IMG/VR virus record: IMGVR_UViG_3300049718_000055
Location: 1-64,000 of that record
DNA: 64,000 nucleotides
Strand: one strand, 5' to 3'
Source of the DNA: a virus
Position numbers and translations under genes: made by a program. The notes below the pieces were generated by a model. It was not told the DNA's origin, searched no databases, and worked only from the letters and a program-made list of their open reading frames with translations. This document shows positions 8,067-56,400 of this stretch, one piece after another. Every line of letters begins with the position of its first letter. Positions within the stretch are counted from its first letter, which is position 1.

Positions 8067-8683
8067 TAGAGTCCTGCCGCTTGCATCTGCGCGTAACCCA
8101 CGTTGACTCGCGCCGTTGCCTCGTCCTGGTCGATGCCGTAGTGCTCGGCCACGAGTCGGGCGGTCTGCGCGTCATCCCGGTAGGGCTTAATCATCAAGAG
8201 CGTCACTGCGGTAGTCGAAGCTGCAATCGTCACGCCCTTGACTCCCTTGATGAGGCTCACCATGATATTCACGATGCTGGAAACGCCGTTGAGAACAGCC
8301 AGCGCCAATGCTTGACTCTTGGGATTGACAATCTTCGCAGCCGCCAGGAGCGCAGAGTTTACGTTCTGCTGCAACGCTACCAGTTGAGCGGCCAGCGTGG
8401 AGGCGAAAGTTGTCGTTGGATTCTTCAGGTAGTCTTGCGCCTGAGAGACGGCCAAGTTCGAGGCCGCGTCAAAGCCAACCGTAACAGCGGCGAAGATCGG
8501 AGCGGCAGCTGGGTCAAGCAATGCGGCTGTCGAGTCCACGGTTGCTACAGCAGCCTGTAAAGACGGAACCCAGTTAACAATGTCCTGCGCCACGGTGACG
8601 CCGTTGCAGCCCGACAAGAACGGTGTCGCGCACATGACGGCCCAAAGCGTAACGACGGTAAACAATGCGGTGATTCGTTTCAT
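8066..8683 (-). CDS. Putative lipoprotein
   Basis: MKRITALF... signal peptide with lipobox LSGC; GAGGAG SD. Confidence 0.7.
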   Translation of the reverse strand: MKRITALFTVVTLWAVMCATPFLSGCNGVTVAQDIVNWVPSLQAAVATVDSTAALLDPAAAPIFAAVTVGFDAASNLAVSQAQDYLKNPTTTFASTLAAQLVALQQNVNSALLAAAKIVNPKSQALALAVLNGVSSIVNIMVSLIKGVKGVTIAASTTAVTLLMIKPYRDDAQTARLVAEHYGIDQDEATARVNVGYAQMQAAGL

Positions 8684-44636: not shown

Positions 44637-45821
44637 CTAGAAAAATACACCCGCGGTCGGAGAACCCACTATCGGAGATCCGCCGCCTCCACTCAATGAC
44701 ACCTGCCCACCAGAGTTCGTCAACACCACCACAGCAACTATTTGGTTCCCATCAAAATTTACCTGAAGCCTATTTTGTGCAGTATCGCCAGAATACGGCC
44801 CCGAAAGAATGACAATTCGGCTTCCCTTTTTGACGCTGTAGTACCACACGTTCCCTACTTCAACGCTTCCCCCAGACCCGCTAACGGTTCCCAGGGAGGC
44901 TTGATAGGTGAACGTATACGGCGGAGTTGCTGAACTGATCGGATATGAGCCATTGAACCCCGCAGGGGATACTCCGGCAATCGTCATCGAACTTTGAGCC
45001 GTGAGCCCCGTGGCTACATAGGTAACCACCGTCACAAGGTTTCCCACACTGGAGATTGAATGGATTCCATACGAGGTAGGAAGGGAAAGGGTATCCGTCC
45101 TTCCGTACAAATAGGTTTTACTTCCATCGGCAAAAGTGAAGGGGCTGGCCGGAATGGTTACCGTCACGCTTCCGGCATTTGTTATTGCAGCCACTAGGAA
45201 ATAGGCGCTTCCAACCGAGCCGGACTGAGTGGGATAAACCTTGTCCCCAATCGCATAATTCAACCCTCCAAAAACACTTCCCCCTGTGACCACCCCGCCA
45301 GCCGCCGTAATCGCAGCCAAAGCCCCCGTGCCGCTTCCCGAAGTGGTCGTAGGCAGGTTGGAAGCATTGCTGTACCCAGAAGTTCCGCCAGCCCCCAGAG
45401 AAGACGAAGTGATTACCCCGCCCGAGATAGAGTTCGTTGTCAGCGGAATGATGTTGTTGGCGTTTGGGGGAGTTGACATAAGATCGTTCAACCAGGAGCT
45501 TTGCTGCTCCCTCTGTGAATTTGAATTTATCATCCGATACGTGTCGAGAGAGTTTCCGCTGTTTGCCTGAAGCTGCGGCTTCAAAGCGGCAGCACTGTAC
45601 GAAGTCTTCGCCGCCCCGCTCGTCAACGCATCACTATCCGAGGTCGGCGCCGCAACATTCTTGATATTATTGCCACCGAGGTTGAGATGATTGCTCAACT
45701 CGACTTCCCCATTATGACCGCCAAGAGTGTTCACGTTGTCAATCAGTTGGCTCATCAATTGGCTCTCTGGAAGAGACAGGGAGGAAAAGTTTATCTTTCC
45801 GAGTTTGGAAGACTTCGGCAT
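44637..45821 (-). CDS. Virion structural (tail-associated) protein
   Basis: G/S/T-rich; IKNVAAPTSDSDA motif. Confidence 0.6.
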   Translation of the reverse strand: MPKSSKLGKINFSSLSLPESQLMSQLIDNVNTLGGHNGEVELSNHLNLGGNNIKNVAAPTSDSDALTSGAAKTSYSAAALKPQLQANSGNSLDTYRMINSNSQREQQSSWLNDLMSTPPNANNIIPLTTNSISGGVITSSSLGAGGTSGYSNASNLPTTTSGSGTGALAAITAAGGVVTGGSVFGGLNYAIGDKVYPTQSGSVGSAYFLVAAITNAGSVTVTIPASPFTFADGSKTYLYGRTDTLSLPTSYGIHSISSVGNLVTVVTYVATGLTAQSSMTIAGVSPAGFNGSYPISSATPPYTFTYQASLGTVSGSGGSVEVGNVWYYSVKKGSRIVILSGPYSGDTAQNRLQVNFDGNQIVAVVVLTNSGGQVSLSGGGGSPIVGSPTAGVFF

Positions 45822-46075
45822 TATCCAGCTACCTCTACTAGTTTTCCGTGCTGTTCCCACGGCGTAACGACATCATCAGGAACAGGACCAAAACACCTTC
45901 CTTCGTTCTTGCATTCCGATATTCCCGATCTTGACATTCTAGAATCAGGTTTTCCGTGAAAGATATGACGCTTCCCGTCAGTCTTTGAAATCTTCGGAAT
46001 CCAATACTGTTCGCACCCCCAGCAGTATCCGTCAACCTGAAACCTTGGAAATTCGGATTGGATCGTCTCTGGCAT
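45821..46075 (-). CDS. Hypothetical protein
   Basis: TATACT-6nt-ATG; TAATG coupling. Confidence 0.5.
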   Translation of the reverse strand: MPETIQSEFPRFQVDGYCWGCEQYWIPKISKTDGKRHIFHGKPDSRMSRSGISECKNEGRCFGPVPDDVVTPWEQHGKLVEVAG

Positions 46076-46153
46076 GGAATCAGTATACCCCAATGTAGGC
46101 ATAAACAGAAAAGCCTCTTCCGAAGAAGAGGCCCGTCTGCGGATAGGGGAAGC

Positions 46154-46501
46154 CTAAGCCGGGGTTGTAAATTGCACTGCCACGCTTTGCGTGAGTTGGG
46201 CCGGCGGAACGACAGCGTTCGTGGTGATTGTGAACGCCTGAGTCCAGGTCGAAACCACGCCGTCATTATCAGTGACCGTGGCAGCAGCCGTTCCAGTGAC
46301 AGCGCCGGCCGAGGCCGCTACGCCGGTAACAGTGGCGGTCAAGCCGTCAGCATTGAGAACCACGGTCGCGGACGGGTCCGAGAACGTGTACGAGACGGCA
46401 GAGAGTACGCCGCCAGAGAGGGTGACGCCATCGGCCAAAAGGGGCTGAATGGACGCCTGCGAAGTTTGACCAACATTGAGGGTCAAAGCATTGTTTGCCA
46501 T
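46154..46501 (-). CDS. Ig-like domain protein
   Basis: LTLNVGQT...SDPSATV...VTGVAA; AGGAG SD. Confidence 0.7.
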   Translation of the reverse strand: MANNALTLNVGQTSQASIQPLLADGVTLSGGVLSAVSYTFSDPSATVVLNADGLTATVTGVAASAGAVTGTAAATVTDNDGVVSTWTQAFTITTNAVVPPAQLTQSVAVQFTTPA

Positions 46502-46728
46502 GGGTGAGTCTCCTGTGAAACGAACTTCGATTGAGTAGGTTGCGAGTTTGGGTTTGAGTTCACGGCGAATCTCTCTGAGCAACCGCTCAATCCGATGTCT
46601 TGCATAGAGCGTTGCCCATTGACATTCTAAAATTTCACGTAATTGTTCGAGTGGATTCTCCAAATGGTCCCTCCACCAATCTCTTAACTACACTATACCA
46701 CTACATTTTGAATCTGTGGTGAGCAATA

Positions 46729-46812
46729 TGGAGCGGGGGACGGGATTTGAACCCGCGTGTCTCTCGACGGCAGCTTGGAAGGCTGCTGACCTACCAGTTG
46801 GTCATCCCCCGC
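46729..46812 (-). tRNA. tRNA-Gly(TCC), long variable arm
   Basis: GCAGC-CTTCCAA-GCTGC; CCA encoded. Confidence 0.9.
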
Positions 46813-46817
46813 AAACT

Positions 46818-46891
46818 TGGTGCTCCCCGCAGAAATCGAATCCGCATTGGCCGATAATCGGTCGGCTTTCCTACCATTGGAAGAGAGGAGC
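46818..46891 (-). tRNA. tRNA-Ile(GAT), atypical loop
   Basis: GCCGA-CCGATTA-TCGGC; CCA. Confidence 0.8.
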
Positions 46892-46892
46892 A

Positions 46893-46966
46893 TGGGGCCG
46901 GGAGCGAGAATCGAACTCGCGCCTCATCCGTACCAGGGATGCAGTCTCCCACTAAAATATCCCGGC
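46893..46966 (-). tRNA. tRNA-Thr(GGT)
   Basis: CATCC-CTGGTAC-GGATG; CCA. Confidence 0.88.
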
Positions 46967-46972
46967 TCTACT

Positions 46973-47050
46973 TGGTGCGGATGGCAGGACTCGAACCTGC
47001 GGTAATTCTTCTTTGTAGGAGAAGCGGCGTCGCCACTGGCCCACATCCGC
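46973..47050 (-). tRNA. tRNA-Val(TAC)
   Basis: CTTCT-CCTACAA-AGAAG; CCA. Confidence 0.85.
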
Positions 47051-47055
47051 AAAAC

Positions 47056-47133
47056 TGGTACTCCCGGTTGGACTCGAACCAACATCAATCCACTTACGGA
47101 CACTCGCTTCGGAGGCGAGACCGATACGGGAGC
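47056..47133 (-). tRNA. tRNA-Arg(CCG), no canonical D-arm
   Basis: CTCGC-CTCCGAA-GCGAG; normal T-arm and acceptor stem. Confidence 0.8.
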
Positions 47134-47138
47134 ATAAC

Positions 47139-47215
47139 TGGGGCCGCTGGCCGGAATCGAACCGGCGTCATCCAACTACTCTTGCCGGTTTAGGAAACCG
47201 GAGAGATACAGCGGC
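47139..47215 (-). tRNA. tRNA-Arg(CCT), no canonical D-arm
   Basis: CCGGT-TTCCTAA-ACCGG. Confidence 0.8.
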
Positions 47216-47219
47216 AAAC

Positions 47220-47296
47220 TGGCGCTCCCGGCAGGAGTCGAACCCGCGTCATCCGTCTACGGCCTCCTGTTTAGAAGACAGTGCCGATACGGGAGC
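47220..47296 (-). tRNA. tRNA-Arg(TCT), no canonical D-arm
   Basis: CTGT-CTTCTAA-ACAG. Confidence 0.8.
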
Positions 47297-47298
47297 AT

Positions 47299-47384
47299 TG
47301 GTGGAGCCGGTGGGACTCGAACCCACATTGGGTTACCCCGCTGATTAAAAGTCAGGTCTCTGCATCCAATTCGAGTACGACTCC
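47299..47384 (-). tRNA. tRNA-Lys(TTT), long variable arm
   Basis: CTGA-CTTTTAA-TCAG; V-arm GGGTAACCC. Confidence 0.88.
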
Positions 47385-47390
47385 GAAACT

Positions 47391-47465
47391 TGGTGGGTCG
47401 CCGGGGAATCGAACCCCGCTCTTTCGATTAAGAGTCGAGTGCATCGCCGACAATGCTTGCAACCC
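47391..47465 (-). tRNA. tRNA-Lys(CTT)
   Basis: TCGA-CTCTTAA-TCGA. Confidence 0.9.
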
Positions 47466-47468
47466 ACA

Positions 47469-47562
47469 TGGTAGGGGATGAAGGTGTCGAACCTTCCCGT
47501 TGCGCTAATCTGGCGCTCTCCAGAGTTTATAAGACTCCGCCGCACGGCCGATGCTATCCCCC
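47469..47562 (-). tRNA. tRNA with TAT anticodon (Ile), long variable arm
   Basis: GGAGT-CTTATAA-ACTCT; 94 nt. Confidence 0.8.
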
Positions 47563-47568
47563 AAAACT

Positions 47569-47640
47569 TGGTGCCGCGCCTGAAAATCGAATTCAGCAAA
47601 CAGGGTTATGAATCCTGCGTTCTCTCCAGAGATGCGCGGC
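47569..47640 (-). tRNA. tRNA-Met/Ile2(CAT), short D-arm
   Basis: CAGGA-TTCATAA-CCCTG. Confidence 0.75.
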
Positions 47641-47641
47641 T

Positions 47642-47715
47642 TGGCAGGGGATACAGGACTCGAACCCGTAAATTCCGCTCTGGAGGCGGACGTTTTTCCA
47701 TTAGACTAATCCCCT
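47642..47715 (-). tRNA. tRNA-Trp(CCA)
   Basis: TCCGC-CTCCAGA-GCGGA. Confidence 0.92.
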
Positions 47716-47729
47716 ATGTCAAAGAGCAT

Positions 47730-47756
47730 AAAAAACCCGCTCCTGAGAGCGGGCCT
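47730..47756 (-). terminator. Attenuator terminator 3
   Basis: AGGCCCGCTC-TCAG-GAGCGGGTTTTTT. Confidence 0.85.
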
Positions 47757-47780
47757 GTCGCAACAAAAACGCAGCAGACC

Positions 47781-47852
47781 CTAAAACACGACTCCCCAAA
47801 TGACCCGCTTCCCGGTCATTCTGGTTATCACGTGTTTGGTCCTGATCTGCAT
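47781..47852 (-). CDS. Leader peptide 3, MQIRTKHVITRMTGKRVIWGVVF
   Basis: Lies between promoter and terminator; codons match the 12 downstream tRNAs. Confidence 0.8.
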   Translation of the reverse strand: MQIRTKHVITRMTGKRVIWGVVF

Positions 47853-47872
47853 GAATTCCCACCTGCAAGTAC

Positions 47873-47901
47873 AGCGTACATCAACTTTCCGTTTTGTGCA
47901 A
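47873..47901 (-). promoter_or_regulatory. Promoter of tRNA block 3
   Basis: TTGCAC-17bp-TACGCT. Confidence 0.65.
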
Positions 47902-47905
47902 CTGC

Positions 47906-49090
47906 TCAGTCCTTGTAAGGATCAAATTCACGGGCAGATGCCATAGCCACTCCGACCGGGGTCAACACGTGAAGAACTTTGATCGAATCTCCACACGCCG
48001 CAAGAACTCCGTCTAGCCGTTTGTAGCAGTCTGGAGATTCGTCTAACCCGGCGCCACGCAGTTCAATTCCGGCCTTCCTTACCCATCCATCCATCATCTC
48101 CTGAGTTACTCTTCCAGGGCGCTTGCACTCGCCTGTCTTGCGGTCGAAAGTCCCCTTCGCCTCCATGCGACCCATTGCACGGCCAGCGCCGTGAACGGTT
48201 GAGTAAAGGCTGTACTTGGCATCCTCGTTCTCCATGCCCTCCAAGATGACGGACTTCTCGCCCATCGTTCCTCCAACGAATCCCTTCTGTCCAGGGAACG
48301 CCGGAGTGGCTCCCTTGCGAACAACCCACAGCATCTCACCACCATGCTCTTCCCGCCATGCGAAGTTGTGATGGTTGTGAACCTCTTCAATAGCCTTAGC
48401 TCCAAGAATCTTAATCACGCGGTCGCAGACCCAGTTCCTTCCTGCATAAGCGTACTCGCCGGCAAGAGACATAGCCTGTAGATATTCGCTGCCTAGTGCG
48501 CTGTCTACCGACAAGACACATGGCTCCACATCCATTCCGTCTTTTGCTCCTGCTGCTTTCAAAAACCACGTTGCAATCTTATGCCCGAGGCCGCGAGAAC
48601 CGAAATGAACACCCACCCAAACGCGGTCTTCTTCGTCTGTAAAAAGATCTACATAATGGTTTCCAGAACCCAAAGTCCCAAGTTGCTGATGAGCCATTTC
48701 CTTGAGCGGGGAGGTCATTGAAAGACTCCAGGCATCATGCTCGAAAACCTGATCGTCTACACGCTCGTCGTCATTCTTTCTCCCAACCCCAAAACTGACT
48801 ATATTCCATACGTCATCCATTATCGGCTTGATGCTGCCACGCAACATCCAGCCTTCCATGTCGGTCAACACGGCCTTGTTTCCACAGCCGATGTCGTATC
48901 CCACTCCGGTTGGGCTGATGGAATTTCTATAAGCCACAACACCGCCAATGGGCACACCGTACCCAAGGTGGTTATCTGGCATCAATGCCACTTTGTCCGC
49001 GGTTTTCGCACAGGTCCGAATCTGGTTGAGAGTCTTTTCTTCAGCTTCCCCAAATACCGGTATAGTTCCATCTACTAACTGCATCCCCAT
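47906..49090 (-). CDS. rtcB: RNA 3'-phosphate/5'-OH ligase RtcB
   Basis: MPDNHLGYGVPIGG; VGYDIGCG; GTLGSGNHY; HFGSRG; HNHHN; RKGAT; HGAGR; DESP..YK. Confidence 0.96.
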   Translation of the reverse strand: MGMQLVDGTIPVFGEAEEKTLNQIRTCAKTADKVALMPDNHLGYGVPIGGVVAYRNSISPTGVGYDIGCGNKAVLTDMEGWMLRGSIKPIMDDVWNIVSFGVGRKNDDERVDDQVFEHDAWSLSMTSPLKEMAHQQLGTLGSGNHYVDLFTDEEDRVWVGVHFGSRGLGHKIATWFLKAAGAKDGMDVEPCVLSVDSALGSEYLQAMSLAGEYAYAGRNWVCDRVIKILGAKAIEEVHNHHNFAWREEHGGEMLWVVRKGATPAFPGQKGFVGGTMGEKSVILEGMENEDAKYSLYSTVHGAGRAMGRMEAKGTFDRKTGECKRPGRVTQEMMDGWVRKAGIELRGAGLDESPDCYKRLDGVLAACGDSIKVLHVLTPVGVAMASAREFDPYKD

Positions 49091-49105
49091 ACCCTCCTTT
49101 TTATT

Positions 49106-49180
49106 TGGTGAGCGCGGAGGGAATCGAACCCCCATCGTTGCGTTCGTAGCGCAGCACTCTATCCGTTGAGCTACGCGCCC
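49106..49180 (-). tRNA. tRNA-Arg(ACG)
   Basis: TGCG-CTACGAA-CGCA. Confidence 0.93.
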
Positions 49181-49191
49181 ACATTCAAACT

Positions 49192-49265
49192 TGGTCTCCG
49201 AGGGCGGACTCGAACCGCCGACACCGCGCCCCGAACGCGGGATGTTTCCACTACACTACTCAGAG
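49192..49265 (-). tRNA. tRNA-Pro(CGG)
   Basis: CCGCG-TTCGGGG-CGCGG. Confidence 0.92.
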
Positions 49266-49266
49266 A

Positions 49267-49340
49267 TGGTCAGCGAGGGGAGAATTGAACTCCCACCACA
49301 AGTTCCCAAGACTTGGATGCAACCATTACACCACTCACTG
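49267..49340 (-). tRNA. tRNA-Pro(TGG)
   Basis: CAAGT-CTTGGGA-ACTTG. Confidence 0.9.
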
Positions 49341-49348
49341 ATTAAAAG

Positions 49349-49517
49349 TTATGCGTGACGGAATCAAACCGTCTCCACCCGCTCCAATGCGGGAGTGCTA
49401 TCCGTCCAGAGTCGTGTCGATCTTGAGCCGCTACGTATCGCCCCAAAACGCATTCCACTGTACTGCCTTCGCTACGCTCCGTCGAGCTTCACTTTGGCTT
49501 CATTACACCAACGCATA
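49349..49517 (-). ncRNA. tRNA-like RNA with a ~95-nt insertion in the D-loop
   Basis: TATGCGT/ACGCATA acceptor stem, GTGT/GCAC D-stem, CCCGC-ATTGGA-GCGGG, T-arm GACGG-TTTGATT-CCGTC; no CCA. Confidence 0.65.
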
Positions 49518-49519
49518 CT

Positions 49520-49595
49520 TGGTGCCGACTACCCGTATCGAGCGGGTTTCCATCGCTCTTCAGGCGATTGCTATGACCTCATCAGCTAAGTCGGC
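49520..49595 (-). tRNA. tRNA-Phe(GAA)
   Basis: ATCGC-CTGAAGA-GCGAT. Confidence 0.9.
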
Positions 49596-49600
49596 AAAAC

Positions 49601-49676
49601 TGGTGGACCTAGAGGGGCTTGAGTCCTCGACCTCCCCGGTGCAAACGGGGTGCTACTCCATCTGAGCTATAGGCCC
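49601..49676 (-). tRNA. tRNA-Ala(TGC)
   Basis: CCCCG-TTTGCAC-CGGGG; G3:U70 present. Confidence 0.92.
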
Positions 49677-49684
49677 GTAAAACT

Positions 49685-49760
49685 TGGAGGGAAAGGTGGG
49701 AGTTGGACCCACTAGAACCTGTTCCACAGACAGGCGCCGCACCGTTTGGCTTCAGTCCCC
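49685..49760 (-). tRNA. tRNA-His(GTG), weak acceptor stem
   Basis: CCTGT-CTGTGGA-ACAGG. Confidence 0.78.
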
Positions 49761-49770
49761 ATAAAGCTGT

Positions 49771-49842
49771 TGGGGCCGGATGTGGGAATCTAACCCACCG
49801 CGCAGGCCGTACAAAGGGCTGCTGCTACTCAGAGCATCCGGC
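49771..49842 (-). tRNA. tRNA-Thr(TGT), atypical D-arm
   Basis: Loop TTTGTAC; perfect acceptor and T stems. Confidence 0.72.
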
Positions 49843-50391
49843 TCAGTTAAACGCATACCTCTTATCACCTTCGGAGTCCGTGAATAAAAACGGACCCCAC
49901 TCATTTACCTCGGCGCCGAGAGACCTCAACAAAAATCGCGGCGTGTGAATCGACTGCGGCAGCGGCCGGCGAAGCAACTTCATTCCAGCTTCCTCCGGCG
50001 TCCGGTCGGCCTTGCGGTGATTATCTTTGGCGCAACATGAAACCAAGTTGCTCCACGATGGCGATCCTCCTCTTGACTTTGGAATTATGTGGTCAAGAGT
50101 TAGTTCGCTAGTCTTGAACCTTTCTCCGCAATACATACACCTTTCTCCGTCACGAAGAAAAATGTTCTTGCGGCTTACAACTTGAAGCCTAATTGGGACG
50201 TGGCGATAAGCGCGAAGCCTGATTACCGATGGAGCATAGATTCCAAGTCCGCGATGGATAAGTACATCGGTAGGAACCTCAACCAGAGCAACACCTTTCG
50301 TAATAAGAGTCAGAGCCTTCTTAACTGAAACTATGCGAAGCGGCTCATACGATGCATTGAGAAGAAGTGTTGCGCTTTTTCCTATTGTCAT
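49843..50391 (-). CDS. HNH endonuclease
   Basis: LLLNASYEPL; SRKNIFLRDGERCMYCG; TLDHIIPKSRGG..SWSNLV.CC...N..K..RTPEEAGM. Confidence 0.93.
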   Translation of the reverse strand: MTIGKSATLLLNASYEPLRIVSVKKALTLITKGVALVEVPTDVLIHRGLGIYAPSVIRLRAYRHVPIRLQVVSRKNIFLRDGERCMYCGERFKTSELTLDHIIPKSRGGSPSWSNLVSCCAKDNHRKADRTPEEAGMKLLRRPLPQSIHTPRFLLRSLGAEVNEWGPFLFTDSEGDKRYAFN

Positions 50392-51163
50392 AGTCACCAC
50401 GCTCCCAACGTTCTTTCAGTAAAGCAGACATCTTCGCCTTAGTTTCTTCCTTGTGCTTCATACCTTTGTTTCCAGGTACTCTGCCTTTCCTGATTGCCGA
50501 CTGTTTAGCCCGTGTTTCTTCGGAAGCCTTTTTACCTGTCAGAGAGCGAGAAATCTTTGCTTTACTCTCTTCTGAAAGTTTCCTTCGTCTGTTCGCCGCA
50601 GAAATCTTCTCACTAAATCCCTGCGGTTTAGGTCTCCCCTTCAAAGCAGCAGATCGTTTTGCTTTTTCTTCCTCCGACATTGGGCCTAATTTCCGGCCCC
50701 TAAATGATGCCGACATACGCGCTTTGGTTTCTTCCGAACGCTTTGAACCAGTCCTAGATTTAATCATCTTGGCTATCGCCTCTGCTGTGTGTCTCAATCC
50801 CTTATGCACAGCAGATACTTTCGCTTTCATTTCGGCTGTTCTAACCGCTCCTGATCCTCCCTCGCCCCCATCTGTTCTATTTCTCAAGCATCCAGTTCCA
50901 AGGTTAATTCTCCCATGGAATTTTATTAGCTGCTTCTCCATGAAAAACGCTTCGTCCTCTGACAAATCTTTGGCAATAATTACAATCATCGATTTATCTT
51001 TTGGAGTACGTATCGCTTCAATAGGATTTTTCTTATAGGCTCTTAACCCGTGTCCTTTCCCTATGTAATAAGGAGAACCCGCTGGGCCGTGTTCGGAGGC
51101 AAAAGTCCTCACGTATTGGTATACGTAAAACCCAGAGATTACAGGTCTCCTATAGTTACTCAC
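50345..51163 (-). CDS. GIY-YIG endonuclease with NUMOD3 repeats
   Basis: FYVYQY...YYIGKG...R; LRNRTDGGEG; repeated SEETKAKMS. Start refined to GTG 51163. Confidence 0.88.
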   Translation of the reverse strand: MSNYRRPVISGFYVYQYVRTFASEHGPAGSPYYIGKGHGLRAYKKNPIEAIRTPKDKSMIVIIAKDLSEDEAFFMEKQLIKFHGRINLGTGCLRNRTDGGEGGSGAVRTAEMKAKVSAVHKGLRHTAEAIAKMIKSRTGSKRSEETKARMSASFRGRKLGPMSEEEKAKRSAALKGRPKPQGFSEKISAANRRRKLSEESKAKISRSLTGKKASEETRAKQSAIRKGRVPGNKGMKHKEETKAKMSALLKERWERGDYDNRKKRNTSSQCIV

Positions 51164-51187
51164 TGTCTTACTCTCTTTCCTTAAAAG

Positions 51188-51262
51188 TGGAGCCGGGTAG
51201 CGAAATCGAATCGCTGTCTGTGGGATACGAATCCACTGCTCTGCCATCTGAGCTAACCCGAC
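51188..51262 (-). tRNA. tRNA-Thr(CGT)
   Basis: GTGGA-TTCGTAT-CCCAC. Confidence 0.88.
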
Positions 51263-51345
51263 TATGTTTTTCTGCTAACCTCTTCCACACTTCTCGGAGA
51301 TCGGCATTCAAATGAAACCTGTGCGGCATGTCAACCTCCAAAATT

Positions 51346-51419
51346 TGGAGCGGTTTGCCGGATTTGAACCGGCGCTTTCGCCCTGGCAAGGCAACGTCTT
51401 ACCACTCGACTAAAACCGC
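51346..51419 (-). tRNA. tRNA-Gly(GCC)
   Basis: TTGCC-TTGCCAG-GGCGA. Confidence 0.9.
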
Positions 51420-51424
51420 TTCAC

Positions 51425-51498
51425 TGGCTCCGAGAGTAGGAGTCGAACCTACACAGCGAGCTTCAAAGACTCGCGGCCTACCGTTAACCGATCTCGGA
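51425..51498 (-). tRNA. tRNA-Gln(TTG)
   Basis: CGAGT-CTTTGAA-GCTCG. Confidence 0.92.
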
Positions 51499-51505
51499 TC
51501 AAACT

Positions 51506-51581
51506 TGGCTGGGAAGGCAAGTCTCGAACTTGCTACCTTCCGGGTCAGAGCCGGACGTTCTACCCGTTGAACTTCTTCCCA
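51506..51581 (-). tRNA. tRNA-Gln(CTG)
   Basis: TCCGG-CTCTGAC-CCGGA. Confidence 0.92.
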
Positions 51582-51590
51582 ACTTCAAAC

Positions 51591-51665
51591 TGGCTGTGCA
51601 GGTGGGAGTCGGACCCACATCCTCTCGCTTAACAGGCGAACGCTCGACCATTGAGCTACCGCACA
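51591..51665 (-). tRNA. tRNA-Asn(GTT)
   Basis: TCGC-CTGTTAA-GCGA. Confidence 0.9.
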
Positions 51666-51667
51666 TC

Positions 51668-51706
51668 AAAAAGCCCCTAACCGCTTATTCTCGGCTAGGG
51701 GCTTTT
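51668..51706 (-). terminator. Attenuator terminator 2
   Basis: AAAAGCCCCTAGCCG...CGGTTAGGGGCTTTTT. Confidence 0.85.
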
Positions 51707-51749
51707 CCTCATTTGCTACGTTGTAGCAGTTGAATCTTTGCGCCCAAGC

Positions 51750-51812
51750 CTACACGGGATTACCGAACGCTTGTGGCGTTGTCGGCTGTCCGGTATGGGC
51801 TCGGTTCATCAT
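51750..51812 (-). CDS. Leader peptide 2, MMNRAHTGQPTTPQAFGNPV
   Basis: Starts 7 nt after the -10 box; codons match the 12 downstream tRNAs. Confidence 0.8.
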   Translation of the reverse strand: MMNRAHTGQPTTPQAFGNPV

Positions 51813-51819
51813 GTTTCCT

Positions 51820-51848
51820 ACTTTACCGCCGTTCGCAATTTCTGTCAA
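51820..51848 (-). promoter_or_regulatory. Promoter of tRNA block 2
   Basis: TTGACA-17bp-TAAAGT. Confidence 0.8.
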
Positions 51849-51857
51849 ATCATTTTC

Positions 51858-51934
51858 TGGTAGGGTTGGTGGAACTCGAATCCACTAGGACATGATTGAA
51901 GGTCATGGTGCTCGTCCGCTTTGCATTCAACCCC
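51858..51934 (-). tRNA. tRNA-Glu(TTC)
   Basis: CATGA-CCTTCAA-TCATG. Confidence 0.8.
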
Positions 51935-51939
51935 ATAAC

Positions 51940-52016
51940 TGGCGCGGTAGACGGAAATCGAATCCGTGTACACGATCTTGAGAGAATCGCTGGAGAACCA
52001 GCACCCCTGCTACCGC
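51940..52016 (-). tRNA. tRNA-Glu(CTC)
   Basis: CGATT-CTCTCAA-GATCG. Confidence 0.8.
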
Positions 52017-52017
52017 A

Positions 52018-52092
52018 TGGCGGTCCCACGGGGAGTTGAACCCCGAACGCCTCTTAGACAGAGAGGAATCATTGCCGTTAGACCATGGGACC
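52018..52092 (-). tRNA. tRNA-Asp(GTC)
   Basis: CCTCT-CTGTCTA-AGAGG. Confidence 0.9.
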
Positions 52093-52095
52093 AAA

Positions 52096-52212
52096 AGTTC
52101 CGTTTTGTTTGCCTAGCGGCCCAGTCTCCCATCGCATTAGCAGAATTCCGACTGAGGTTCATCCACTGCGGACTCGAGTCCGTTTGCTAGACTCTTGCCA
52201 GAACGGTACTGG
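52096..52212 (-). ncRNA. Candidate structured ncRNA inside the tRNA array
   Basis: Terminal stem AGTaCCGTT/AACGGaACT; GTCTAGC/GCTAGGC; perfect palindrome CGGACTCGAGTCCG. Confidence 0.45.
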
Positions 52213-52221
52213 CCTTTGGAT

Positions 52222-52296
52222 TGGTTGCGTGGGGAGGACTCGAACCTCCGGTCTCCAGCTTATGAGGCTGGCGAGATGCCGCTTCTCTACCTCGCC
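52222..52296 (-). tRNA. tRNA-Met(CAT), initiator-like
   Basis: CCAGC-CTCATAA-GCTGG; 1:72 mismatch; GCAACCA end. Confidence 0.88.
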
Positions 52297-52301
52297 ATTT
52301 C

Positions 52302-52330
52302 AGTATGCCACTACTCTTTCATGTTGGCAA
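52302..52330 (-). promoter_or_regulatory. Promoter of the Met/Asp/Glu/Glu block (no attenuator)
   Basis: TTGCCA-17bp-CATACT; +1 falls near the tRNA-Met 5' end. Confidence 0.65.
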
Positions 52331-52333
52331 GTA

Positions 52334-52419
52334 TGGTGCATCGCCCCAGGCTCGAACTGGGCTGCTCCGAAGAGCGGCAGGTTTACAGTCTGCTGGCCGT
52401 CCACCCGACCATGCGATGC
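52334..52419 (-). tRNA. tRNA-Tyr(GTA)
   Basis: GCAGA-CTGTAAA-CCTGC; long V-arm. Confidence 0.88.
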
Positions 52420-52423
52420 AAAA

Positions 52424-52513
52424 TGGAGGAAGGTGGAGTAATCGAAACCCTACGCCATCGCTGACGCACCACGGTTTTCAGGACCGTTCGCCGACCATTC
52501 AGCGGCACCTTCC
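52424..52513 (-). tRNA. tRNA-Ser(TGA)
   Basis: ACGGT-CCTGAAA-ACCGT; long V-arm. Confidence 0.88.
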
Positions 52514-52517
52514 AAAC

Positions 52518-52605
52518 TGGCGGAGACGATCCGATTTGAACGGATGGAACCTTGCGGTTCGGAGGTTTAGCAAACCTCTGGATTAGACCGCTCTCCCACG
52601 TCTCC
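52518..52605 (-). tRNA. tRNA-Ser(GCT)
   Basis: GAGGT-TTGCTAA-ACCTC; long V-arm. Confidence 0.93.
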
Positions 52606-52610
52606 AAACT

Positions 52611-52686
52611 TGGTGCCGATGGTCGGGTACGAGCCGACAAGCCTGAAGGTTTGAGCTTCAGAGGTATTCCTTCCCATCACATCGGC
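52611..52686 (-). tRNA. tRNA-Leu(CAA), short variable loop
   Basis: TGAAG-CTCAAAC-CTTCA. Confidence 0.8.
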
Positions 52687-52691
52687 AAAAC

Positions 52692-52767
52692 TGGTGCGGG
52701 TGGAGGGACTCGAACCCCCATGAGACTGATCCTAAGTCAGCCGCGTATTCCATTCCGCCACACCCGC
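52692..52767 (-). tRNA. tRNA-Leu(TAG), short variable loop
   Basis: GCTGA-CTTAGGA-TCAGT. Confidence 0.88.
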
Positions 52768-52778
52768 ACATCTCAAAC

Positions 52779-52851
52779 TGGAGTACCGGGCCGGACTTTA
52801 ACCGGCTTCAACGGTTTTGCAGACCGTCCGCTCGCCCTTCGCTTCCGGTAC
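52779..52851 (-). tRNA. tRNA-Cys(GCA)
   Basis: ACGGT-CTGCAAA-ACCGT; U73. Confidence 0.85.
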
Positions 52852-52852
52852 A

Positions 52853-52930
52853 TGGTGCGGGTGAACGGTGTCGAACCGATCCTAAACTGGGCTTAAACCA
52901 GTTGCCTCTTCCAACGTGGGCTACACCCGC
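52853..52930 (-). tRNA. tRNA-Leu(TAA), short variable loop
   Basis: ACTGG-TTTAAGC-CCAGT. Confidence 0.88.
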
Positions 52931-52931
52931 A

Positions 52932-52967
52932 CAAAACAAAGCCGCCGATCTCTTCGACCGGCGGCTC
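52932..52967 (-). terminator. Attenuator terminator 1
   Basis: GAGCCGCCGGTC-GAAGA-GATCGGCGGCTT-TGTTTTG. Confidence 0.85.
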
Positions 52968-52992
52968 GTGAATTCCAAACTTTGGAATCAGT

Positions 52993-53058
52993 TCACATAA
53001 GCCCCCGGCCCGTCAATGGCAGGCAATACGAGGATAGCGAACTGAGTAAAATTCTCAT
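52993..53058 (-). CDS. Leader peptide 1, MRILLSSLSSYCLPLTGRGLM
   Basis: Leaderless start; contains all six Leu codons plus Ser, Tyr and Cys codons, matching the 7 downstream tRNAs. Confidence 0.8.
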   Translation of the reverse strand: MRILLSSLSSYCLPLTGRGLM

Positions 53059-53064
53059 ATCCAA

Positions 53065-53093
53065 ATCTTCCCACAGATAATCATTATTGTCAA
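53065..53093 (-). promoter_or_regulatory. Promoter of tRNA block 1
   Basis: TTGACA-17bp-GAAGAT-6nt-ATG. Confidence 0.7.
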
Positions 53094-53156
53094 TCGGTCA
53101 TTCCGGTACAGTTAAATTCCCCTCTTCGTCCTCCAATTGAGGCTGAGGTGTACACC

Positions 53157-53372
53157 ATGCCACTAAGTTTGTTTTGGATCATCGCCGTTGTAATCATTGC
53201 CGGAGTAGTTCTTTGGGCTCTAAACTCGTTCCCTGCCATTGACCCCACCATGAAGCAGATCGCCAGAGTGCTTATCATCGTGCTCGTGGTTATCATGGTT
53301 CTCTACTTCCTGTTTGGATTGCTTGCAGGTGGTGGTGCGGGATTCCATAGCTTCCCCGGTCCTTGCCGCTAA
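53157..53372 (+). CDS. Small two-TM membrane protein
   Basis: IIAGVVLWALN..P.IDP.MKQI..VLIIV; GAGGTG SD. Confidence 0.8.
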   Translation: MPLSLFWIIAVVIIAGVVLWALNSFPAIDPTMKQIARVLIIVLVVIMVLYFLFGLLAGGGAGFHSFPGPCR

Positions 53373-53384
53373 TCTTGCCGGCAC

Positions 53385-53414
53385 AAAAAAGCGGCAGACC
53401 CGAAAGCCTGCCGC
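53385..53414 (-). terminator. Intrinsic terminator insulating the tRNA array from upstream transcription
   Basis: GCGGCAGGCTTTCGGGTCTGCCGC-TTTTTT. Confidence 0.85.
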
Positions 53415-53482
53415 ATTCCCCATGATTTGATCTGCGTTGTTATGAATAAACTCTACATCCGGTCGTAGAAGTTGTCAACCGC

Positions 53483-56400
53483 TCATGGCTCCACAAACAA
53501 TACTTTCTCGTAGCCTCTCCCTTGGCACTGGACCTTGTACCACAAATTAGAATCAGGCCAAAGAATAAAGTCCTCCGTACTTGTTCCGACCATTCTCAGT
53601 GTACGGAACGAGATTGCCGGTAGTCGGGTCCGCAATGGATTGCGAAAGCCGCCAGCTTGCGGCATTACAAATGTGAATCCAGCCGTTGGATTATCGTCGT
53701 AGAACACGTTGACAATGATCGGCGCACCCGCTGAGTAAATCCAGAAAACGTCGCGCGCAAATTTGGAAGATGCCTCCGAAATATTGATCTTGTAAGTGTC
53801 GAACGTCTTCCTCGTCCTCGGCAGTACCAGAGCCTCTACAGCGGCTTGGTACAGGTACGCGAACGTGGACAGATTCCCGACGATCTGGAGACTGATTTTG
53901 TAGGCTTGCTGGCCGAGTCCGTTGAGCAACGGCAGGTTGATCTTGCCGCGAGTCGAGTTGCTGATCGTTCCGAGTGGGACCGTGATTGCGCCGTCATTAA
54001 ACAAGGCGTTGACGGTCAAGGTCTGCCCCCCGAGGTTGCAGTCAACCACAATCGCGTTGTACTGTTTCTGGTTTGCCGGCGAGCTTTGGAATGAGTAAGC
54101 AGTCTGGAGATTGATTGCAATCGGCCCCGCGGCCAGTACGCCCCCGCTTGATACTTGATCGTAGGGAAGGTTTTGCCGGTCAATGTGTACGAGCCCGTTT
54201 GAATCGCCGTAGAGCAACTGATTCGTATCGGCCTCAAGCATCAAGCATTGCGCGTCAACGTCATCATTCCTGAATCGCTTGTACTGAGCGTGGTATACCA
54301 ACCGATGCCGGTTTCCGTCCGTACCGATGTAACTGAAAAATACCATTGAGTTCCAGTACGAAGCCACCGTCTGCGACAACTTCGTTTGGTCCGCTTCGAC
54401 AATCGGAGTGGAACCTACGCCCTGGAAAAGGAACTCAACCTGGAGACTCATGTACACCGACTCCCCACCAGTAAAAGCACGTAGACCATCTGCGGCTTGG
54501 TAGGCAATCATCTCTTCGGTCGCCACGTACCCAAATGGCGCCACACAACCATGCGCACAAGACGTGGGATATGGTGCCTGTTTTGCCGGACTGTCCGGTG
54601 GAACCATCCACCATCCGCTTTTGATACAACTGACCATGATATTTCCCTTGAAAGGCACCACGGCCGTAATGTAATCATCCGGCGTAGAGATGATGATGTT
54701 GTTCGCTTCACCCACGTACTGCGGAGCGTTTCCGGTGCTGAAGTAAAGCGTTGACGGGTTGTTCGGATCTCCCCAATACCATGCCTTGTTGAAAGCTATG
54801 ACCATGCCGTAGACCGGCTGGCCTACCTTAATACTCGCCTGGACCTGCTCTCCAGCCGCATGATAATTCTGGACAAAGGCAGTGAAAGAACTCACTCCGA
54901 CTGTCAATACCACTACGGTTTCAAAGTTGTTTGCTTGAGCCGTTGGATTCCCCAACAAGACTTGCTGGCGCACTGAGATGTTCGCCATGCTTGCCGGGTT
55001 TATCGTCACTACAGAGCCCACCGGAATATCTGGCAGCGTGTAATAGATCGTGACCACTAGATTGTTGACATAGACGGTTGCCGCTGATGATCCTAAGTTG
55101 TCTCCGCCTACAAGCGTCTGAGTAAAATCAGCATTGACGATTGCAGGAGTAATCGTAGTGCCCCACAAATTTCCACTTCCACCAAAGACATAAGTCTGCG
55201 GAGCTAGTGTCAAGGAAATCTCTGCCGGAAGGGCGGCTCCGGGAATATTTATACTTGCGGTCATCTTAGGACCGAGCACGCTCGTATAAGCATCAAAGCT
55301 GACTTTAATTCCGGTGATGGTCGCGGTTAAGGGGATGCTCGGAAGACTGAAGTCTCCCTGCAAGGCCCCAATCCCTTGCGAAGCAGGTGCCGACACGGAC
55401 GTATAAAGTGATGAAGATGTAGCGTTGGTTGGATTTACCCAAGTAGACCCGACCGGATTCGATCCTGTGATTGACGGAGAAACCTGTAATGTTCCTACAA
55501 TAGCAGCGTTCAGTGTAGTATTCACCGGAACCGGAAGAAGACTCGGAACCGGAACATCGTTCGTAAACGAAACCATATCCGCTCCGGCTATCAGGTAGTC
55601 CGGTGCCGTGTCGGTATACTGGACTATCCCCCCGCCCTCTATGCTGATCGGGATTTCGTCTATTCGCCTGAAGTTATCTCCGTAGGTTCCCCCTCTTCTA
55701 TAGATTCTCAGATACCCGATCTGACCATCCTGCAACTGTCCTGCGGGTCCGTAAGTCTTAGTGTTGATTTTTAACAACACCGGCTGGCGCCGCGGGTAGA
55801 CCCAGTTCGTATGGTTAGGCGGGTTCTGATTCGTCATTATCGGAGATGGATTCGATTCCGTTCCATCCACGTCATTTAAGAACGTCGCAACATAGTCATA
55901 GGCTACTCCACCAAGAGTATCTGGACCTGCCCCTCCAAACAGTACCAGAGAAGAAAGTTTAATCGTCGAGCTTGAGTTGTCATTCATCACAATCGTGATC
56001 TGATAGCCGTTGACGTTTGACCAGTTGTAGACCGCATCTTTATAGTCCGCCATCCCTGCTCCAGAAAAATCTGACAACTGGAAGAGAAGCGGCGTCCAGA
56101 TATTTTTCCCTGTATCCAGTTCTCCGATAGACCCGGCTCCATTTCCGTAAAGGCTGAGACTATCCTCAAGAACAGCTTCCGTTAGAAGAGTAGTTACGCT
56201 ACTTGTCCCAGAGGCAGAAGATGTTGCTAAAGTAGTCAACTCCTGCAAAGGTCCTTGGGAAATTACTTTATAGAAATAGTCGCTCTCGAATGATCCGTCT
56301 CCGCAATCAAAACTTAGCGTTATGCTCTGGATTTGCGTTTGGTCGCTGACAAACATATAGAGACCAATGTAATCAGATTGGTTGTCGGATACAGTCTCGC

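Follow-up and report, generated by a model that had tools for sequence, protein, structure and literature searches.

Phage tRNA gene arrays are usually seen as constitutive codon-usage patches, or as spares against anticodon nucleases; to our knowledge, how phages control their own tRNA genes is essentially unknown. Among known systems, the nearest are the leader-peptide attenuators of enterobacterial amino-acid operons, where multivalent leaders include those of thr (Thr and Ile codons) and of ilvGMEDA and ilvBN (Ile, Leu, and Val), alongside trpL, hisL, leuL, and pheL. These have a promoter, a short ORF whose regulatory codons specify several amino acids, and an intrinsic terminator, a layout found again in the peat-soil phage described here. 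They also use alternative pairing set by ribosome position, with a ribosome at the stop codon masking the antiterminator strand, as is proposed below for the phage. The differences are that enterobacterial attenuators control biosynthetic enzymes through runs of repeated codons, whereas the phage units precede tRNA genes and carry about one codon each for 8-12 tRNAs; several phage leaders appear leaderless; and phage RNA that is not translated should, by prediction, give read-through and not super-attenuation.

In E. coli pheST, an attenuator controls the aminoacyl-tRNA synthetase for one amino acid. This too is leader-peptide attenuation of a translation-apparatus gene, tuned by cognate codons, but it acts on one synthetase gene and not on tRNA genes. 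T-box elements, which control synthetase and amino-acid genes, bind tRNA directly through one specifier codon within a conserved fold, which has a Stem I bearing the specifier loop and a T-box sequence in the antiterminator; as in the phage proposal, the choice between terminator and antiterminator is made by the state of a specific tRNA, via codon-anticodon pairing. The phage elements differ in showing the features of a translated ORF.

Two further systems resemble the locus in gene content. The trn operon of Anabaena sp. PCC 7120 is a long, inducible tRNA array co-regulated with rtcB (PMC8421152, PMC10272220); like the phage locus, it is a supernumerary array tied to RtcB, and it is turned on when translation is impaired, as is proposed for the phage. 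Its control has been assigned to the repressor TrcR and to direct repeats that overlie the -10 box and start site of the promoter, and neither paper mentions a leader, attenuator, or terminator (PMC8421152, PMC10272220). T4-like and T5-like phages have tRNA gene regions with homing endonucleases such as SegB (PMC2330249), and share with this locus a clustered array into which homing-endonuclease genes of the GIY-YIG and HNH types have moved; codon-matched leader attenuators have not been described for them in the literature that could be searched. The first-pass annotation of this DNA knew of no described attenuator governing tRNA genes through their own codons, and the literature search likewise found no published control of this kind for tRNA genes.

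The locus and its tRNA genes

The window (the whole 64,000-nt stretch analysed) is positions 1 to 64,000 of IMG/VR record IMGVR_UViG_3300049718_000055, and the locus lies at 46,729 to 53,093. It has three minus-strand blocks of tRNA genes, each behind a codon-matched small ORF and a transcription stop signal. ARAGORN with default settings found 24 tRNAs; relaxed ARAGORN, Rfam, and reading of anticodon loops added 11 more (Cys(GCA), Ser(TGA), Glu(TTC), Thr(TGT), His(GTG), Ala(TGC), a second CAT, Arg(TCT), Arg(CCT), Arg(CCG), and Ile(GAT)). The resulting total of 35 equals the list in the first-pass annotation, and the recurring unit described there (20-23-codon ORF, hairpin with T-run, tRNA block) is seen at all three minus-strand sites.

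The three leader ORFs, 20-23 codons long, are each followed by a GC-rich hairpin and a T-run that ends 2-17 nt before the tRNA block. An intrinsic terminator stands between leader ORF and tRNA genes in all three window units, as it does in their homologues, and the gene-end terminators of this phage have hairpins of this type too. Hairpin and T-run were located at 52967-52939 (A), 51707-51668 (B), and 47756-47733 (C). Because the terminators end 8 nt (A), 2 nt (B), and 17 nt (C) before the first tRNA, a promoter would not fit between hairpin and tRNA.

Unit A and the adjoining tRNA genes comprise:

53065..53093, minus strand: promoter A (TTGACA, 17 nt, GAAGAT; -10 ends 6 nt before the ATG)
52993..53058, minus strand: leader A ORF (21 codons; matches 8/8 block A tRNAs)
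52994..53010, minus strand: putative antiterminator strand of leader A (last codons and stop; pairs with the terminator 5′ arm)
52931..52967, minus strand: intrinsic terminator A (12-bp stem, 5-nt loop, T-run; ends 8 nt before tRNA-Leu)
52222..52930, minus strand: block A, tRNAs Leu(TAA), Cys(GCA), Leu(TAG), Leu(CAA), Ser(GCT), Ser(TGA), Tyr(GTA), Met(CAT)
51858..52092, minus strand: tRNAs Asp(GTC), Glu(CTC), Glu(TTC), whose codons are absent from all window leaders

With the -10 ending so close to the ATG, the leader A transcript is probably leaderless; this promoter geometry recurs in the related contigs L009, L090, and L012. The leader has many Leu, Ser, Tyr, and Cys codons, and each of the six Leu codons is present once.

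Unit B carries two homing-endonuclease-like genes and an RNA ligase gene in addition to its tRNAs:

51820..51848, minus strand: promoter B (TTGACA, 17 nt, TAAAGT; -10 ends 7 nt before the ATG)
51750..51812, minus strand: leader B ORF (20 codons; 12/12 block B tRNAs matched; rank 1 of 111 ORFs)
51668..51707, minus strand: intrinsic terminator B (16-bp stem, 8-nt loop, T-run; ends 2 nt before tRNA-Asn)
51188..51665, minus strand: block B, first part, tRNAs Asn(GTT), Gln(CTG), Gln(TTG), Gly(GCC), Thr(CGT)
49843..51163, minus strand: two homing-endonuclease-like genes inside block B (NUMOD3/GIY-YIG-like gene and HNH gene)
51163-50345, minus strand: the first of these (NUMOD3 repeats, GIY-YIG-like N-terminus)
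50400-49843, minus strand: the second (HNH)
49106..49842, minus strand: block B, second part, tRNAs Thr(TGT), His(GTG), Ala(TGC), Phe(GAA), a 180-nt spacer, then Pro(TGG), Pro(CGG), Arg(ACG)
47906..49090, minus strand: RtcB RNA ligase gene (PF01139, E=2e-69)

The leader B transcript, like that of leader A, probably starts leaderless. Its predicted peptide has two Met, then only Asn, Arg, Ala, His, Thr, Gly, Gln, Pro, and Phe, with Val as last residue. The rtcB gene lies within unit B, directly behind tRNA-Arg(ACG), and has its own Shine-Dalgarno sequence.

Unit C comprises:

47859..47901, minus strand: weak promoter-like site before leader C (approximately TTGCAC, 17 nt, TACGCT), with a Shine-Dalgarno sequence also in this interval
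47781..47852, minus strand: leader C ORF (23 codons; 12/12 block C tRNAs matched; rank 1 of 111 ORFs)
47751..47781, minus strand: hairpin 1, a putative antiterminator (5′ arm begins at the stop codon)
47727..47756, minus strand: intrinsic terminator C (10-bp stem, 4-nt loop, T-run; ends 17 nt before tRNA-Trp)
46729..47715, minus strand: block C, tRNAs Trp(CCA), CAT, Ile(TAT), Lys(CTT), Lys(TTT), Arg(TCT), Arg(CCT), Arg(CCG), Val(TAC), Thr(GGT), Ile(GAT), Gly(TCC)

The sigma70-type promoter attributed earlier to every unit is supported for A and B (TTGACA, 17-nt spacing), but leader C has only the weak site. Its ATG has a Shine-Dalgarno sequence (AGGTGG) 6 nt upstream, and its L009 homologue has a better promoter (TTGACA/TACTAT). 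The codons of leader C include TGG, ATA, AAA, AAG, AGA, AGG, CGG, three ACC, ATC/ATT, GGA/GGG, and GTG.

The first-pass annotation gave the Asp and Glu tRNAs a separate, unattenuated promoter. A promoter scan of the 130-nt spacer before tRNA-Asp gave no match, and in the related contig L092 tRNA-Asp starts just 1 nt after tRNA-Met; this proposal is not supported. Most likely these three genes are co-transcribed with block A, or from a promoter-like site at 52330-52302; a contig from an RNA library covers 52077-52283. That no window leader has an Asp or Glu codon is correct, and it leaves the Asp, Glu, and Glu tRNAs sampled by no window leader, a weakness of the model proposed below.

Codon match between leaders and tRNA blocks

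Under strict wobble rules, a cognate codon is present in the unit's own leader for 8/8 (A), 12/12 (B), and 12/12 (C) tRNAs, bearing out in full (32/32) the first-pass claim that every block tRNA can read its own leader; the other leaders cover 1-6 tRNAs per block. Random re-partitions of the tRNAs (200,000) gave a mean of 17.6 and a maximum of 28, against 32 observed. For random ORFs with phage codon usage, the probability of covering a whole block is 9e-4, 1e-4, and 1.3e-4 for the respective units, or jointly about 1e-11 before correction. The match is 22/24 if only ARAGORN-default tRNAs are used (permutation maximum 20), and 32/35 if Asp/Glu/Glu are counted in unit A, an assignment under which the enrichment of leader A is modest (rank 3). 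The window contains 478 ATG-ORFs of 15-35 codons, of which only leaders B and C reach 12/12 for their blocks. Leader codons are mostly single per tRNA, not runs of regulatory codons.

The match was also said to hold at isoacceptor level. It does exceed chance there (29/35, P=6e-5): 12/14 Thr, Gly, and Arg codons of leaders B and C are read by their own block, and wherever a U34 isoacceptor is paired with a C34 one, the leader has an A-ending as well as a G-ending codon. It is imperfect, however; in L096 and L098, block B has Gly(TCC) but the leader has only GGC.

Related contigs

A search of related arrays for codon/anticodon co-variation, suggested with the original annotation, found the leader ORFs retained in ten phage contigs, with codons that follow tRNA content. 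They are open at 18-37 codons in all relatives, and the ATG lies 6-8 nt past the -10 hexamer in 10/13 leaders. When all ATG-ORFs of a locus (n=111-180) were ranked, for the window, L009, L090, L012, and L020, the ORF directly upstream was the best match for 10/12 blocks; upstream ORFs of all three L095 units and both L161 units also rank 1. In the window and in five related arrangements, leaders match their own block to a significant degree. The window, L009, L090, and L095-L100 have shared ancestry, and their matches are not independent events.

Leader content changes with the block. TGG is present in leader C where block C holds tRNA-Trp (window, L009, L090, L095-L100), and in leader 1 where block 1 does (L012, L020, L161). 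Asp and Glu codons track the Asp and Glu tRNAs of the unit (leader 2 of L012 and L020; leader A of L095 and L097). In L012, 24/28 codons of leader 2 are read by its own block and 0/28 by block 1. The L009 leader B has the same nine amino acids in different order and length, and relatives of leader C, as natural variants, show an in-frame 3-nt deletion at 47811. No matched ORFs were found in the unrelated RtcB-adjacent arrays used as negative controls (L031, L086, L068).

Predicted pairing between the stop region and the terminator

The claim that a strand at the leader stop can pair with the 5′ arm of the terminator holds clearly for A, more weakly for B, and in another form for C. In leader A, the stop-region strand pairs with 14/15 nt delimited as the terminator 5′ arm (duplex energy -21.4 kcal/mol, where shuffled strands give -11.0; P=0.002), and this type of complementarity persists despite different sequence in L009, L095, and L097. 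In leader B, the strand just past the stop (leader nt 63-73) can pair with 9/16 nt of the 5′ arm (P=0.048 against shuffled strands). Taking both values obtained for each, the native duplex beats shuffled strands with P=0.002 and <0.002 for A, and P=0.048 and 0.014 for B. For the C family, duplex complementarity was not better than that of shuffled strands. There the 3′ arm of hairpin 1 has 5-6 nt in common with the terminator 5′ arm, an overlap kept in 8 C-family homologues though the stems differ, and the terminator stem shows compensatory changes.

Folding of the alternative structures gave a mixed result: strand pairing is supported, but minimum-energy folds of full leaders A and B retain the terminator in most simulated stall positions, so a switch would have to be kinetic. 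Until the terminator 3′ arm has been made, the 5′ arm is predicted to pair with the stop-region strand, provided that no ribosome occupies the stop.

Proposed mechanism and alternatives

The units are proposed to be three ribosome-mediated transcription attenuators that adjust tRNA output to tRNA supply. Each would begin at a sigma70-type promoter followed by a short ORF with about one codon per downstream tRNA gene. If all leader codons are decoded quickly, the ribosome would reach the stop codon and cover the surrounding strand, the terminator hairpin would form, and RNA polymerase would stop just before the first tRNA gene. If a sampled tRNA is scarce, the ribosome would stall upstream, leaving the stop-region strand to pair with the terminator 5′ arm and permitting read-through into the tRNA block and, in unit B, also into rtcB. 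Each unit would thus sense what it makes, and so keep its own share of the 35 tRNAs under negative feedback. Some leader codons lie near the stop, and stalling there would not yield read-through.

The core of the first-pass reading, sub-operons gated by a codon-matched leader ORF and terminator, survived every computational test run, and the attenuator model is considered probable, if some way from secure. To the observed anatomy, codon/anticodon match, conservation with co-variation, and strand complementarity, it adds leader translation, stall-dependent read-through, and a physiological trigger (the loss of host tRNAs, or heavy demand for tRNA in late infection), all of them inferred. Signs of translation are the fixed promoter-ATG distance, the in-frame 3-nt indel, and the open ORFs in relatives; neither translation nor regulated termination has direct evidence behind it. 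On the link to host anticodon nucleases, the sequence carries nothing that bears either way.

The alternative with most in its favor, though still unlikely, is that the ORFs are real and translated without any intrinsic-terminator switch, the hairpins being constant partial terminators or processing signals. A stalled ribosome might then mask a C-rich Rho loading site, in a tnaC-type control, or translation might alter the processing or stability of tRNA precursors. Leader 1 of L012 and L020 fits such a scheme: it is codon-matched (9/9 tRNAs) and ends 20-22 nt before the first tRNA, its RNA is C-rich and G-poor, and no canonical terminator (hairpin with T-run) lies before that tRNA, so the ORF there must work differently. 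The retention of terminators A and B in full-length minimum-energy folds and the non-significant C-family duplex test point the same way. Against this, a canonical hairpin and T-run stand right before the first tRNA in the three window units and their homologues (ten contigs), and complementarity between stop region and terminator arm is maintained even where sequences differ. Should the ORFs instead be functionless chance features, and the hairpins plain terminators or insulators between transcription units, it could be argued that short ORFs are common (the 478 noted above) and that leader A is only modestly enriched, at rank 3, with Asp/Glu in its unit. This is disfavored and has the least credit of the explanations considered: the three full covers (jointly about 1e-11, uncorrected), the rank-1 results across loci, and the co-variation of codon content with blocks all speak against it, and without promoter room after the hairpin, plain efficient terminators would silence the arrays.

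The remaining alternatives accept a regulatory leader and change what it senses. It is improbable that these are ordinary attenuators sensing amino-acid starvation by charging, with the likeness to anticodons arising only from the grouping of tRNAs by amino acid. Classical attenuators do answer to charged tRNA, and leaders and blocks agree best by amino acid, with imperfect agreement by codon; however, extra tRNA cannot relieve amino-acid starvation, which would leave the coupling to tRNA genes without benefit, and both the above-chance isoacceptor match (29/35, P=6e-5) and the paired A- and G-ending codons count against it. Very little weight is given to direct binding of tRNAs by the leader RNA through codon-anticodon pairing without ribosomes, as in a multi-specifier T-box. 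A codon list upstream of a terminator/antiterminator pair is indeed T-box logic, but an Rfam scan of 45500-54500 gave no match to RF00230 or any other cis-regulatory family at E<=1, the codons keep one frame from an ATG at fixed promoter distance to the stop, indels in relatives are in frame, and no acceptor-end-binding bulge is apparent.

Implications

The balance of evidence tips, without great confidence, toward leader ORFs that list the codons read by the tRNAs encoded beyond a terminator being an undescribed class of phage regulation, present in several unrelated phage lineages. Each sub-operon, here including RtcB, would be transcribed in proportion to slow decoding, giving a self-correcting tRNA supply that would react automatically to a host defense nuclease destroying particular tRNAs. 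With RtcB placed in the same gated unit B, a single signal would govern both the replacement and the repair of tRNAs. The sequence signature is simple (the codon set of the ORF equals the anticodon set of the block), and could help in annotating the transcription units of tRNA arrays and in forecasting the tRNAs whose loss in infection a phage anticipates; synthetic sensors of decoding speed for chosen codons are another possible use. If the leaders do list the downstream anticodons, the ribosome itself would measure tRNA supply, with correction block by block, and the principle of attenuation would be widened from amino-acid supply to tRNA supply.

Organization of the tRNA array

The window covers the first 64 kb of a viral contig that is 88.6 kb long and about 91% complete. 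No close relative was found among GenBank phages, where matches were limited to the RtcB gene and single tRNAs; the public runs containing this contig are peat, bog, and permafrost metagenomes. Every tRNA gene lies in a single minus-strand array (52930-46729). ARAGORN called 24 of them at default settings, and relaxed ARAGORN, the Rfam tRNA model, and direct reading of anticodon stem-loops added 11: Cys(GCA), Ser(TGA), Glu(TTC), Thr(TGT), His(GTG), a second CAT, Ala(TGC, with a G3:U70 pair), Arg(TCT), Arg(CCT), Arg(CCG), and Ile(GAT). This agrees with the 35 tRNAs of the first-pass annotation, made from sequence without searches, and covers all 20 amino acids. ARAGORN missed these 11 at default and miscalled two when relaxed; Rfam intervals and an anticodon-loop reader were used instead. 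Four of the 35 are supported by relaxed ARAGORN only, three of which have homologues called at default in the related phage contig L009.

The architecture described in that annotation, with a short ORF, a terminator, and a tRNA block recurring three times, is indeed present (units A to C):

53058-52993, minus strand: leader A, ATG-initiated ORF of 21 codons
52967-52939, minus strand: terminator A, GC-rich hairpin with T-run, ending 8 nt before the first tRNA of its block
51812-51750, minus strand: leader B, ATG-initiated ORF of 20 codons
51707-51668, minus strand: terminator B, GC-rich hairpin with T-run, ending 2 nt before the first tRNA of its block
47852-47781, minus strand: leader C, ATG-initiated ORF of 23 codons
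47756-47733, minus strand: terminator C, GC-rich hairpin with T-run, ending 17 nt before the first tRNA of its block

No promoter fits between hairpin and tRNA, so the blocks can be transcribed only by read-through. Ordinary genes of this phage end in similar hairpins (53414-53391 and 46134-46111). Unit B also includes rtcB and two homing-endonuclease-like genes. Between its tRNA genes (51163-49843, minus strand) are a NUMOD3-repeat endonuclease with a GIY-YIG-like N-terminus and an HNH endonuclease; relatives have other insertions at other array positions (e.g., 6725-7350 and 7900-8420 in reverse-complement coordinates of contig L090).

Leaders A and B are preceded by TTGACA, a 17-nt spacer, and a -10 hexamer ending 6-7 nt upstream of the ATG, and leader C by a weak promoter and a Shine-Dalgarno sequence. 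The -10 hexamer ends 6-8 nt from the ATG in 10 of 13 leaders (window, 53093-53058 and 51848-51812; L009, L090, and L012). Given this short distance, the leader transcripts, those of A and B in particular, are predicted from promoter spacing to be probably leaderless mRNAs, which would be informative on translation initiation in the host, for which peat Acidobacteriota are a candidate. Between promoter A and the terminator of a 1280-aa gene is an ORF for a strongly hydrophobic 74-aa protein (53148-53372, plus strand), with no significant Pfam match.

Several of the tRNAs are structurally unusual. Arg(TCT), Arg(CCT), and Arg(CCG) (47296-47059, minus strand) have only about 7 nt between acceptor and anticodon stem, and an 18-19-nt variable region with a D-loop-like motif, as though the D arm had been transferred to the 3' side of the anticodon arm. 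They go undetected by ARAGORN; they score 31-35 bits with the Rfam tRNA model, with weak tmRNA and permuted-tmRNA matches at the same place. In L009, the homologues of Arg(CCT) and Arg(CCG) give normal tRNA calls. Ile(TAT) (47562-47469), Lys(TTT) (47384-47299), and Gly(TCC) (46812-46729), all minus strand, measure 94, 86, and 84 nt and have long extra arms that are not typical of their classes; the best Rfam match of Ile(TAT) and Gly(TCC) is the tRNA-Sec model. C33 replaces the near-universal U33 in Ser(TGA) (52513-52424), Glu(TTC) (51934-51858), and Ile(GAT) (46891-46818), all minus strand, and L009:3497-3587 is grouped with these; the change may help these tRNAs escape nucleases that cut the anticodon loop, or may reflect decay. 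The 180-nt spacer that separates Phe from Pro(TGG) (49519-49341, minus strand) includes a T-arm-like piece and may be a decayed tRNA.

Codon match between leaders and tRNA blocks

The claim that every tRNA has a codon in its own leader holds for blocks A to C: under strict wobble rules, 8 of 8, 12 of 12, and 12 of 12 tRNAs have a cognate codon there, against 1-6 in the other leaders. Leader A includes all six Leu codons, each once. ORFs generated at random from phage codon usage match every tRNA of a block with probabilities of 9e-4, 1e-4, and 1.3e-4. Of the 478 ATG-ORFs with 15-35 codons found in the window, none but the leaders achieves the full 12/12 for B or C. When the 32 tRNAs were reassigned to blocks at random 200,000 times, matches averaged 17.6 and peaked at 28. 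With Asp, Glu, and Glu assigned to unit A, 32 of 35 are matched (maximum 27 on random reassignment); with ARAGORN-default tRNAs only, 22 of 24 (maximum 20). Thr, Gly, and Arg each have tRNAs in two blocks; for these amino acids, the leader's own block reads 12 of 14 codons (29 of 35 with L009 added), which largely, but not fully, upholds within the window the isoacceptor-level match also proposed. The codon match is real and far beyond chance.

Related arrays

Array-bearing contigs were found by RtcB searches and leader DNA word searches; one, L093, was rejected as a false word match within a coding region. The three-unit order of the window is common to L009, L092, and L095-L100. In L089 and L090, leader C immediately follows tRNA-Tyr. 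L012, L020, and L161 have two units, the first with Ser, Tyr, four Leu, Trp, Cys, and Ser, and the second with nearly all others.

The block-specific match is significant in all five fully analysed arrangements (P <= 1e-4 for tRNAs matched). To avoid choosing ORFs by eye, all ATG-ORFs of each locus, on both strands, were ranked by per-block enrichment; the immediate upstream ORF ranked first of 111-180 for 10 of 12 blocks. Without preset block ends, it still ranked first for all three units of L095, both of L161, unit B of L097, and unit C of L098.

Codons and anticodons also co-vary as the first-pass annotation would have it, Trp, Asp, and Glu codons moving with their tRNAs. TGG is in leader C if Trp heads block C, and in leader 1 if Trp is in block 1; Asp and Glu codons are in leader 2 of L012 and L020 and leader A of L095 and L097, the units that have those tRNAs. 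Of the 28 codons of L012 leader 2, 24 are read by its own block and none by block 1. L009 leader B is longer and reordered, yet draws on the same nine amino acids, with a tail added; leader peptide sequences drift, and the codon set is kept. There are exceptions. In the window and L092, Asp/Glu tRNAs follow block A, and leader A has no Asp or Glu codon; most leader C homologues retaining Arg(CCT) lack AGG; and the isoacceptor-level match fails in L096 and L098, where block B has Gly(TCC) and the leader only GGC. Taken together, the comparisons show that selection has favoured leaders in which the codons spell out the tRNAs located downstream. No codon-matched ORFs were found in L031, L086, and L068, arrays beside more distant RtcB genes used as negative controls; such leaders are lineage-restricted, not universal.

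A possible terminator switch

Attenuation would require that ribosome position determine whether a strand near the stop codon pairs with the terminator 5' arm. Folding supports this only in part. In minimum-energy folds of whole leaders with the ribosome footprint masked, the terminators are mostly kept; this method leaves the switch undecided, and it means that a switch, if there is one, has to be kinetic. When the RNA is cut short of the terminator 3' arm, pairing in the folds does change: a ribosome on the stop codon leaves the 5' arm almost entirely unpaired, and with a ribosome stalled at least 7-10 codons upstream the arm pairs with the strand flanking the stop codon (14 of 15 nt in A, 9 of 16 in B, and 10 of 10 in C).

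The leader A duplex outperforms shuffled strands by a wide margin in both the window (P = 0.002) and L009 (P < 0.002), despite differing sequences, and L095 and L097 leader A have the same stop-region pairing to the terminator arm. Support for leader B is marginal (P = 0.048 and 0.014). Duplex energy was no better than shuffles for the C family, L090 leader A, and leader 2 of L012 and L020. In all eight C homologues a hairpin begins 0-3 nt past the stop codon and overlaps the terminator 5' arm by 5-6 nt; their terminator stems differ, with two compensatory pairs. Automatic picking gave no terminator for the L095-L098 leader B homologues, L009 leader B', or L012 leader 2, and L095 leader B was compared by eye only.

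Leader 1 of L012 (3339-3474) and L020 (6893-6999) matches nine of nine tRNAs and ends 20-22 nt upstream of the first, with no canonical terminator before that tRNA. Its RNA is C-rich and G-poor, resembling a Rho loading site, and this ORF must act by different means, perhaps through Rho. A non-classical mechanism for codon-matched ORFs thus remains alive as a rival to ribosome-mediated attenuation.

Transcription of the Asp and Glu tRNAs

The separate promoter first proposed for the Asp and Glu tRNAs was not confirmed. None was found by a promoter scan of the 130-nt spacer before tRNA-Asp, Asp is 1 nt after Met in L092, and a peat RNA-library contig (52077-52283) spans Met, spacer, and Asp exactly. 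The likeliest arrangement is therefore that Asp, Glu, and Glu belong to unit A, or that they are transcribed from a promoter-like site at 52330-52302 (minus strand; TTGCCA, 17 nt, TG-CATACT). Its -10 ends 6 nt before the first base of tRNA-Met, and a start there would coincide with the mature 5' end of that tRNA. The spacer also has a GTG-started mini-ORF of nine codons (about 52165-52136, minus strand) that includes two codons for Glu and one for Asp and is not followed by a hairpin; it could be a vestigial or minimal Asp/Glu leader, or chance.

Further peat metatranscriptome contigs are identical to multi-tRNA stretches (47184-47442, 52391-52541, and 52672-52824). As a weak hint, these are compatible with natural precursor transcripts; DNA carry-over is not excluded. 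The RNA run, available as contigs only, with transcript ends unreadable, gave no cover on leaders or rtcB, which proves nothing.

Proposed regulation of tRNA supply

A T-box-like reading of the leaders was rejected: an Rfam search of 45500-54500 (E <= 1) gave no T-box or other cis-regulatory match. The closest precedent in print is the trn array of Anabaena, which translational stress induces along with rtcB (PMC8421152, PMC10272220). Control there is by promoter repeats and the repressor TrcR, in contrast to the leader ORF and terminator here, and neither paper mentions a leader or terminator. Full-text literature, in coverage that leaves out most subscription journals, yielded no case of tRNA genes controlled by a leader peptide.

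A response to host anticodon nucleases is a plausible role for the system, but the sequence offers no evidence on this point. The likeliest mechanism, in which we have reasonable but by no means complete confidence, is ribosome-mediated attenuation through which tRNA supply feeds back on itself. This would be a variation on a known regulatory principle, directed at a new class of target, the tRNA genes.
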